NCBI RefSeq assembly: GCF_004010195.1
Contig: NC_057756.1
Coordinates: 3,814,785-3,878,784, forward strand
DNA: 64,000 nt
Source: Chiloscyllium plagiosum
Lineage: Eukaryota
Reading direction: 5' to 3'
Under the pieces are notes generated by a model, which was not told the origin of the DNA, searched no databases, and saw only the letters and a list, made by a program, of their open reading frames with translations. Below, piece after piece: positions 51,301-52,430 of this stretch; the first letter of the stretch is position 1; every line of letters begins with the position of its first letter. The translations under genes were made by a program, and so were the position numbers.

Positions 51301-52430
51301 AGACTGGAGTAATTCCTTCTATGGCCCCGGGTTCTAACGGGTATTGTGCTCTGCAAGGACGATACTCGGAATTGGGGTTATTCCTATGGGTTCACAGCCT
51401 ATTATAAGCCCCATATCATTTTTGCCTTTTGCCCACAACTCAGTAGGGACTGTTTAATCTTGGGTTCGAGACTTCTATCTTCGGGAAATGCCAGGCTACT
51501 CTCCTAGTCTTTTCAGGGCGAGCGGGGGTTACCTGGACTGTCCTAACTGCCTGAGTTAGCCAATTTAGATTCTACTTATGTGTTCACATCTCTCCATTGA
51601 ACCAGATACCAACATCATTCCTAAAGATCCAATATGTCGCTCTTTGAACCTTTAGCACTCATAGTCCCAAATCATGCCACGTGCCACCGGACGCCTTCGC
51701 CAGTGACACGTAATGAGTGGAGCATTCAACATCAAAAAAGATAGGGTCTGCTTGCTGTTACAGATAGCTTAGATAAGTTCACACTGACTTCATTTCTATG
51801 ATCACTCCAATACAATTCGCACAATAACAACTGATCTGGTTTAACCATTCTCCTGAACTACTCCTTCTCATGTGGTTCATCAGGGCCATCGTAGTATCTG
51901 TGTGCTGTGCAGTGCACCATGTGCCAGCAAGAAAATCGGTGTCAACTGGATTAACATGATTGCTTTCTAACAGGACGAGTGAATCGCTCACTGAACTTAC
52001 CGCTCTCTGGCTTAATCGCCACTCATAGACATACATCACTGTTCGTGGGTCGTATTTTACAGCCTGCACCAGTAAATCTTCCCTTTGTATTACCTGCAAA
52101 CCCGTCGGAGTACTTAGCAAATCCAACCCCAGTCTCCCTATGAGATCCTGAGAATCATATTTAAAGGACAGTACTCCAATAACAAGAATGAGAATTGGAA
52201 TGTTTCCCCATTACTAGTTTCGCACAATAGGGGTGCAGAAAATTTCTCTCAAATCTCGACTTCTGATGCACTCATTATGTTCAAGAACCTTCCACACATC
52301 TTTATTTGCGTCGATTGTCCAAACTGGCTTAATTTAAGGACTTAATATGTTGCCCCTATATTTACCAAAAAGGTAACTGGTGCACTTTCCACATATAACA
52401 TATAGGTACGGATCGACTCATACGCATCAT
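48350..52430 (-). pseudogene. pol: ERV pro-pol (PR, insert, RT, RNase H, IN)
   Basis: PR: FLVNIGATY (degenerate DTGA) at ~52345-52378. RT: WRFVQDLQAVN, PNPYTIL, SQFWFAF, LQYADDCLIA. RH: DGS..GYAVV..SSQAAE..NIYTDSRSAFGIVHDFG. IN: PFEHLQVD, SDNGSPF, LSPFEILFGR, TWIHASHCKR. Confidence 0.93.

Follow-up and report, generated by a model that had tools for sequence, protein, structure and literature searches.

The 2H phosphoesterase superfamily is defined by two H-x-T/S-hydrophobic motifs (sections of PMC5434554), and 2H folds switch substrates readily (PMC11410667). Within it, CNPase is described as converting 2',3'-cyclic phosphates to 2'-phosphates via two His-x-Thr motifs, with removal of either His abolishing activity, as complementing yeast that lacks the CPD activity of Trl1, and as having a helix, alpha7, after the second-motif strand that is unique to it among 2H enzymes (sections of PMC4643303). 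Excerpts of PMC5283653 add that alpha7 blocks the side bound by 2'-5' adenylate substrates in the viral and eukaryotic 2-5A nucleases. Related domains have been noted in retroviruses: passages of PMC4977317 (citing Basta 2009) state that epsilon-like ERVs of ray-finned fish sometimes encode CNPase or macro domains, and passages of PMC9503650 (citing Mazumder 2002) count WDSV and fish retroviruses among the carriers of 2H domains. The initial annotation of this DNA likewise remarked that some fish retroviral polyproteins contain 2H domains. In the full-text literature, most subscription journals lying outside it, we found neither a retroviral 2H domain that had been assayed nor one described from a cartilaginous fish. 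The first 10,000 of the 14,366 characters of an elephant-shark ERV paper do not mention the domain (PMC4422223), and the main text of PMC6001957 has no occurrence of CNPase, phosphodiesterase or phosphoesterase, its supplements being a place where domain annotations may be held. The string 'retrovir' does not occur in PMC8406329. The domain is thus already known from fish retroviruses, and the locus described here is one more, dead, copy of it. It has the same place in Pol as the CNPase-like/2H domain of WDSV and teleost epsilon-like ERVs, and its relatives have the same motifs and spacing; it differs in being dead and perhaps in its host, which may be a shark, whereas the named relatives come from ray-finned fish.

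The locus belongs to a decayed retroviral gag-pol on the minus strand, at about 53550-48350 of the window, by which we mean the whole 64-kb stretch of DNA analysed. Intact fish ERV polyproteins are collinear with the window by tblastn, in the order Gag, PR, interval, RT, RNase H and integrase, and the alignments of these relatives give about 13 changes of frame in pol of this copy. The features are as follows, in window coordinates.

54624..54641, minus strand: PBS-like stretch, seen in the sequence, resembling the tRNA-Pro PBS motif
52654..53551, minus strand: Gag remnant, capsid region and following stretch (tblastn with gag-pol relatives P0022 and P0096, 27% identity)
52100..52575, minus strand: protease region, broken (frame translations and tblastn)
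51524..52060, minus strand: decayed 2H phosphoesterase domain, predicted to be CNPase-like, in the PR-RT interval (tblastn pieces with natural relatives; profile matches)
51906..51914, minus strand: first 2H motif, preserved as HCT (its His corresponds to H220 in P0003 and H213 in P0273)
51701..51712, minus strand: column of the second 2H motif, without the catalytic His (frame translation; contig support)
51640..51679, minus strand: remnant of the helix after the second-motif strand, which may correspond to CNPase alpha7 (model of a relative and alignment)
48352..51450, minus strand: RT, RNase H and integrase, with many frameshifts and stops (Pfam RVT_1 and RNase_H; tblastn with intact relatives)
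46720..48350, minus strand: presumed env region, degraded and containing a tandem duplication (position downstream of integrase)

PR-like sequence stops near 52100-52150 and RT starts near 51450, which leaves about 650-670 nt between them, in agreement with the ~650 nt originally claimed. The catalytic Asp column of the protease (about 52362) is not intact in this copy. The RT of the element is 53-74% identical to its top 100 matches, the named ones being from ray-finned fish, and we class the element as a fish-type (epsilon-like) ERV, 'epsilon-like' on the basis of its relatives and of structure matches in BFVD.

Within the interval, the reading frame of the domain shifts twice, near 51925 and again near 51735, and is cut by four in-frame stops (51860, 51661, 51586 and 51574, as placed by frame translations). 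The HCT motif sits at 51914-51906, just where it had been reported, and the column of the second motif begins at 51712, 67 codons on, the same spacing as in the closest intact relative, P0273 (67 residues); a degraded second motif had been noted 65-70 codons on, and what stands there lacks the catalytic His. A His just before the second motif falls one column early when compared by eye with the relatives. The domain had been given as 51600..52060, which locates it correctly and stops short of its real end at about 51524. With its first motif intact, its second His gone and its frame broken, this copy does not carry the two-motif signature of the superfamily; it is dead, a non-working derivative of a 2H member. 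We regard the identity of the domain and the dead state of this copy as close to certain.

The breaks are not peculiar to one assembly. A contig from run X1, possibly the source sample, carries 51533-51764 with no differences and no gaps, and one from run X3, another study, matches 51421-51764 gaplessly with a single difference, so the breaks within 51533-51764 are real. The family is multi-copy: three DNA runs contributed 624, 697 and 546 aligned contig pieces, most of them 90-95% alike. In each of two of these runs, 10 pieces share a loose end in which, judged by eye, the second motif is an intact His-x-Ser, and other copies therefore differ from this locus at the second motif. One RNA run, of which 2% was read, gave a single read that was less than 90% alike. 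A low-depth contig from a second organism (organism B; run X9, record 18) aligns without gaps and at 93% to window 51421-51828, spanning one frameshift of this copy at which most of the depth in run X3 differs. This contig suggests a possible orthologous insertion, which would predate the split of the two organisms.

Could the motifs have arisen by chance in a decayed spacer, or be an artefact of assembly? Taken alone, the read-through of the window would leave room for this: a search of longer proteins with it gave 17 candidates, none at E<=0.01, Pfam gave no families, and its PDB matches were noise (PP1 and glutamate dehydrogenase, E>0.6). The contigs of the second study, which carry the locus with one difference, speak against it, and the relatives lead us to reject chance motifs. 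By tblastn, P0273 matches the window over three pieces, each in its own frame, at 52%, 47.5% and 34% identity (E 2.3e-57). A profile made from natural relatives matches the 64-kb window only at the PR-RT interval (iE 1.7e-12 and 9.8e-9; two further rows have iE >4), scoring 47 and 28 bits there, whereas the best of 200 shuffles, 190 of which were scored, reached 4.7. With the profile and tblastn matches so far above the shuffles, we consider a chance or artefactual origin next to impossible.

How usual is the domain among related elements? We used RT alone to choose relatives, 168 proteins of which 120 were listed, and a pattern search found a protease site upstream of the RT landmark in 35 of the 120 listed. 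Most of these 35 have about 300-350 residues between PR and the RT landmark; a motif pair is present in 25 of the 35. Profile alignment covered both motif columns in 59 of the 120 listed, most of the others being too short or starting downstream. The initial annotation had taken the insertion as particular to this lineage, and here it did not hold up: among the RT-selected relatives the domain is the usual state. Matches of structure in the WDSV and WEHV1 polyproteins likewise lead us to reject a lineage-specific insertion. Intact relatives carry the H-x-T/S-hydrophobic pair that marks the superfamily, both motifs being kept in 50 of the 59 and, after removal of redundancy, in 39 of 48, with the remaining 9 of 48 lacking the full pair. 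The worry that a second His might be missing from the family as a whole is answered by the same 39 of 48. Because it was motif-bearing rows that went into the profile, we repeated the count on 32 rows outside it, where the first His is present in 30/32, the second in 32/32 and both full motifs in 23/32; over all profile matches, many of them fragments, both motifs are present in 116/169 rows. The columns of the two histidines rank 1 and 4 of 158 in conservation (median 0.40), which points to selection on the chemistry.

These numbers bear on whether the domain needs to be an enzyme at all. It might imitate host CNPase or serve as its decoy, or be an RNA-binding spacer, and host CNPase is indeed described as binding Gag/MA, blocking particle assembly and restricting lentivirus (parts of PMC5434554 and PMC7471995); the domain is also far less conserved than RT, with a median identity of 32% against 68%. 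Against such a non-catalytic role stand the rank of the catalytic His columns and a surface that is only ~15% identical to CNPase, and we think it very unlikely.

A profile search over 1.84 billion representatives gave 559 matches at E<=0.001. Of 142 new representatives we scanned 33, among which 26 have retroviral PR, RT, RNase H or IN domains, 6 have no family and 1 is an Ig gene model; no clear stand-alone cellular gene with the domain was seen among the 33. Among 798 candidates, a search for shorter stand-alone forms (query P0003 170-350) returned a single match, a fragment of 130 aa from a contig of 1 kb. The named hosts of the relatives are ray-finned fish, bar a few contamination-like labels. 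Across 38 relatives, identity in the 2H domain correlates weakly with identity in RT (rho 0.25, reached by 6 of 2000 permutations), a pattern in these sequences that fits joint descent without proving a single capture.

Several relatives deserve mention in their own right. The closest, P0273 and the P0003 cluster (Tachysurus fulvidraco), have long open Pol frames of ~1400 aa and are 69-73% identical in RT; over the 2H interval a catfish family outscores all 37 of the remaining non-redundant relatives. Three gene models, P0050, P0109 and P0111, have PR 154-164 residues before the RT landmark, with the domain mostly or wholly missing; these gaps are either real deletions or artefacts of splicing in gene prediction. 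Two host gene models, P0153 (Scortum barcoo) and P0232 (Paramormyrops kingsleyae), have the domain without PR or RT matches, and P0153 joins it to Ig domains. Both are probably chimeric predictions over ERV remnants, the alternative being co-option. P0122, P0293 and P0070, fragments of the fish-ERV domain labelled as Cetobacterium MAG proteins, probably owe their labels to host DNA in gut metagenome bins.

The fold was predicted with AlphaFold2 for residues 176-345 of the unaltered catfish relative P0003, on an alignment of 27 sequences, and not for the window copy; the model has a pLDDT of 94.5 and a pTM of 0.90. In a VIA-align search of 48,161 chains, mouse CNPase came out best (Z 14.8, rmsd 3.3, 159 of 170 residues aligned), followed by drCPDase (Z 8.7), phage Acb1 in third place (8.0) and an archaeal 2'-5' ligase (7.9), and lower down by AKAP18 (7.2), MHV ns2 (6.9), rotavirus VP3 (6.0-6.3) and the penguinpox cGAMP PDE (5.6). 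All 21 rows at Z>=5 are entries that we take to be of 2H type, which indicates a 2H fold in the model. The original proposal had allowed for structure searches failing to return such a fold; the model of the natural relative does have it. With Foldseek on PDB, all 39 rows among the matches listed are CNPase or RICH. The top three matches in BFVD are Q2VF30_1 (E 3.7e-9), which we presume may be SSSV, WEHV1 Q9WHI8 (E 1.2e-7) and WDSV A4GTG3 (E 1.1e-6); Q9WHI8 and A4GTG3 are labelled 'Envelope polyprotein', and their lengths of 1317 and 1159 aa would fit Pol better than env. Acb1 recurs in BFVD at E of about 1e-3 to 1e-1.

Matches by sequence are far fainter. The only two from sequence profiles on PDB, goldfish RICH (E 0.14) and human CNPase (E 2), are non-significant, identity to CNPase is 13-17%, the Pfam CNPase family was found in 0 of 27 members at E<=1, and one short natural relative used alone gave no PDB matches. 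Pfam PF08302 matches 4 of the 27 weakly (best E 0.0047), and by ESM features the domain is close to the clusters of the tRNA-ligase CPD and 2H-SAK (0.92-0.93). Directly after the second-motif strand of the model (111-117) comes a helix, 122-134, whose W122 and G126 are shared by all 27 relatives in the alignment; from the order of secondary structure and the aligned length, we infer that it may correspond to CNPase alpha7. The domain is thus predicted to have a 2H fold closest to that of CNPase.

The catalytic domain of vertebrate CNPase and fish RICH (2xmi, 1woj, 2i3e) is the best fold match and shares the two HxT/S motifs and a helix after the second, but it is longer (~215 aa against ~170 aa), only 13-17% identical, and preceded by an N-terminal PNK-like domain where the viral one is flanked by PR and RT. 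As for membership of the vertebrate CNPase family, CNPase is the closest structural neighbour by a clear step (Z 14.8 against 8.7 for the next), and neither the Pfam model nor the PNK-like domain is found. The fungal tRNA-ligase CPD (PF08302) and 2H-SAK (PF22547) are alike in ESM features and, for PF08302, by the weak match, but unlike the fungal tRNA ligase the retroviral domain has no kinase or ligase module beside it. By prediction, then, the domain works like CNPase, and we assign it neither to the cellular CNPase family nor to the viral 2',5'-PDEs. The initial annotation had placed a 2H domain in Pol and set it beside ns2, VP3 and AKAP7; the model, the ESM features and the structure searches uphold the fold and the place, and the closest kin is CNPase. 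We reject closest kinship to ns2/VP3 on the structural scores, 6.0-7.2 against 14.8.

The same comparison weighs on a role as a 2',5'-phosphodiesterase that would destroy 2-5A and so antagonise OAS-RNase L, as MHV ns2 or rotavirus VP3 do. MHV ns2 (4z5v), rotavirus VP3 (4rpt/6o3v) and AKAP7/AKAP18 have the 2H fold in common with the domain, ns2 and VP3 are virus-encoded, and our structure list includes ns2, VP3 and AKAP18; the superfamily is the same and viral precedent exists (passages of PMC8406329). Elephant shark OAS is listed in the part of PMC6307210 consulted, so cartilaginous fish have the synthetase. Yet these enzymes reach only Z 6.0-7.2 over 109-132 aligned residues, against 14.8 and 159 for CNPase, and alpha7 is described as missing from them (sections of PMC4643303 and PMC5283653). 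The helix of the model appears to be placed like CNPase alpha7, which blocks the 2'-5' side (excerpts of PMC5283653), and if so should likewise block 2-5A. Teleost ERVs, moreover, keep the motifs though some teleost genomes show no OAS (portions of PMC2852836). We therefore judge this role quite unlikely. Of the nucleotide-processing functions originally proposed, antagonism of 2-5A becomes the weaker reading because CNPase is the closest structural kin, and the cyclic-phosphate option becomes the better one.

Another possibility is a phosphodiesterase for cGAMP or other cyclic dinucleotides, delivered with RT and blunting the sensing of reverse-transcribed DNA by cGAS-STING. The cGAMP PDEs, phage Acb1 (7t27) and the penguinpox enzyme (9bkq), share the 2H fold and have a viral anti-immunity role, poxviral LigT-like PDEs and Acb1 degrade cGAMP (PMC11410667), Acb1 stands third in our structure list and recurs in BFVD, and fusion to Pol would put the domain where viral DNA is made. 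The scores of 8.0 for Acb1 and 5.6 for the penguinpox PDE are nevertheless well below the 14.8 of CNPase, and a Z near 8 may mean shared fold only. An alpha7-like helix would limit substrate size (as sections of PMC4643303 and PMC5283653 suggest), and PMC11410667, in which 'retrovir' does not occur, offers no direct precedent. A cGAMP enzyme strikes us as unlikely. According to the model, structure thus narrows the question, with the domain grouping with CNPase and not with the 2-5A or cGAMP nucleases.

Because of the alpha7-like helix in the model, the best reading of the domain is a 2',3'-cyclic phosphodiesterase, and we think it probable, by a modest degree, that the domain of the living virus had 2',3'-cyclic-phosphate chemistry. 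Going by general retrovirus biology, the domain would be made within Gag-Pol and hence packaged with RT. Its action would be CNPase-like and metal-independent, one His activating water and the other protonating the ribose 3'-O, so that 2',3'-cyclic phosphates would be opened to 2'-phosphates. The virus might use it to strip the cyclic-phosphate ends that host endoribonucleases leave on viral RNA or on the primer tRNA, or, alternatively, to act on free 2',3'-cNMPs. Cyclic-phosphate RNA ends are described as being sensed through RIG-I/MDA5, NLRP3 and TLR8 (parts of PMC8406329), and their removal would heal ends and lower the sensing of fragments. The healing of primers is weakened as a purpose because priming may be poor from an end that bears a 2'-phosphate. 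That cyclic-phosphate removal served the virus in this way is the weakest step of the proposal, and we put it forward tentatively, as somewhat doubtful.

As a fossil, this copy alone contributes little; the interest lies in the family, in which an extra enzyme domain with its catalytic histidines kept sits within the Pol of many fish retroviruses. One could go further and speculate that a CNPase-type enzyme was captured once, early, by fish and shark retroviruses, and served as a Pol-fused, virion-delivered antagonist of nucleotide-based immunity that destroyed cGAMP or erased sensor-read cyclic-phosphate RNA ends at the site of reverse transcription. We regard this as rather improbable. If true, it would be the first such retroviral enzyme and would extend 2H anti-immunity to a further virus family. 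If the host is a shark, closeness to the catfish family hints at a jump between host classes, which would fit the retroviral host-class jumps noted in general terms in PMC6001957.

Finally, we note some features of the surrounding DNA. An AATAAA lies near 54710, with the PBS-like stretch at 54624-54641 (minus strand) downstream of it, and no LTR partner for 54600-55100 was found within the 64-kb window. The presumed env region (46720..48350) has no convincing Pfam or Atlas match, so its identity is inferred from position. Inside it, at 46749-47378 of this old decayed provirus, lies a ~318-nt tandem duplication of 96-99% identity, which is either a recent duplication or an artefact of assembly. 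The region also holds an open frame of 194 codons (47386-47967, minus strand), for which we saw no Pfam family, including no EGF match, and no Atlas match at >=0.9. Rfam gave no matches in the 64-kb window, and no host exon was seen among the long frames scanned in it. Three related repeats, 65-73% identical (55032-56183, 59771-60594 and 62778-63989), one of them with an RVT_1 match, are probably LINE remnants.
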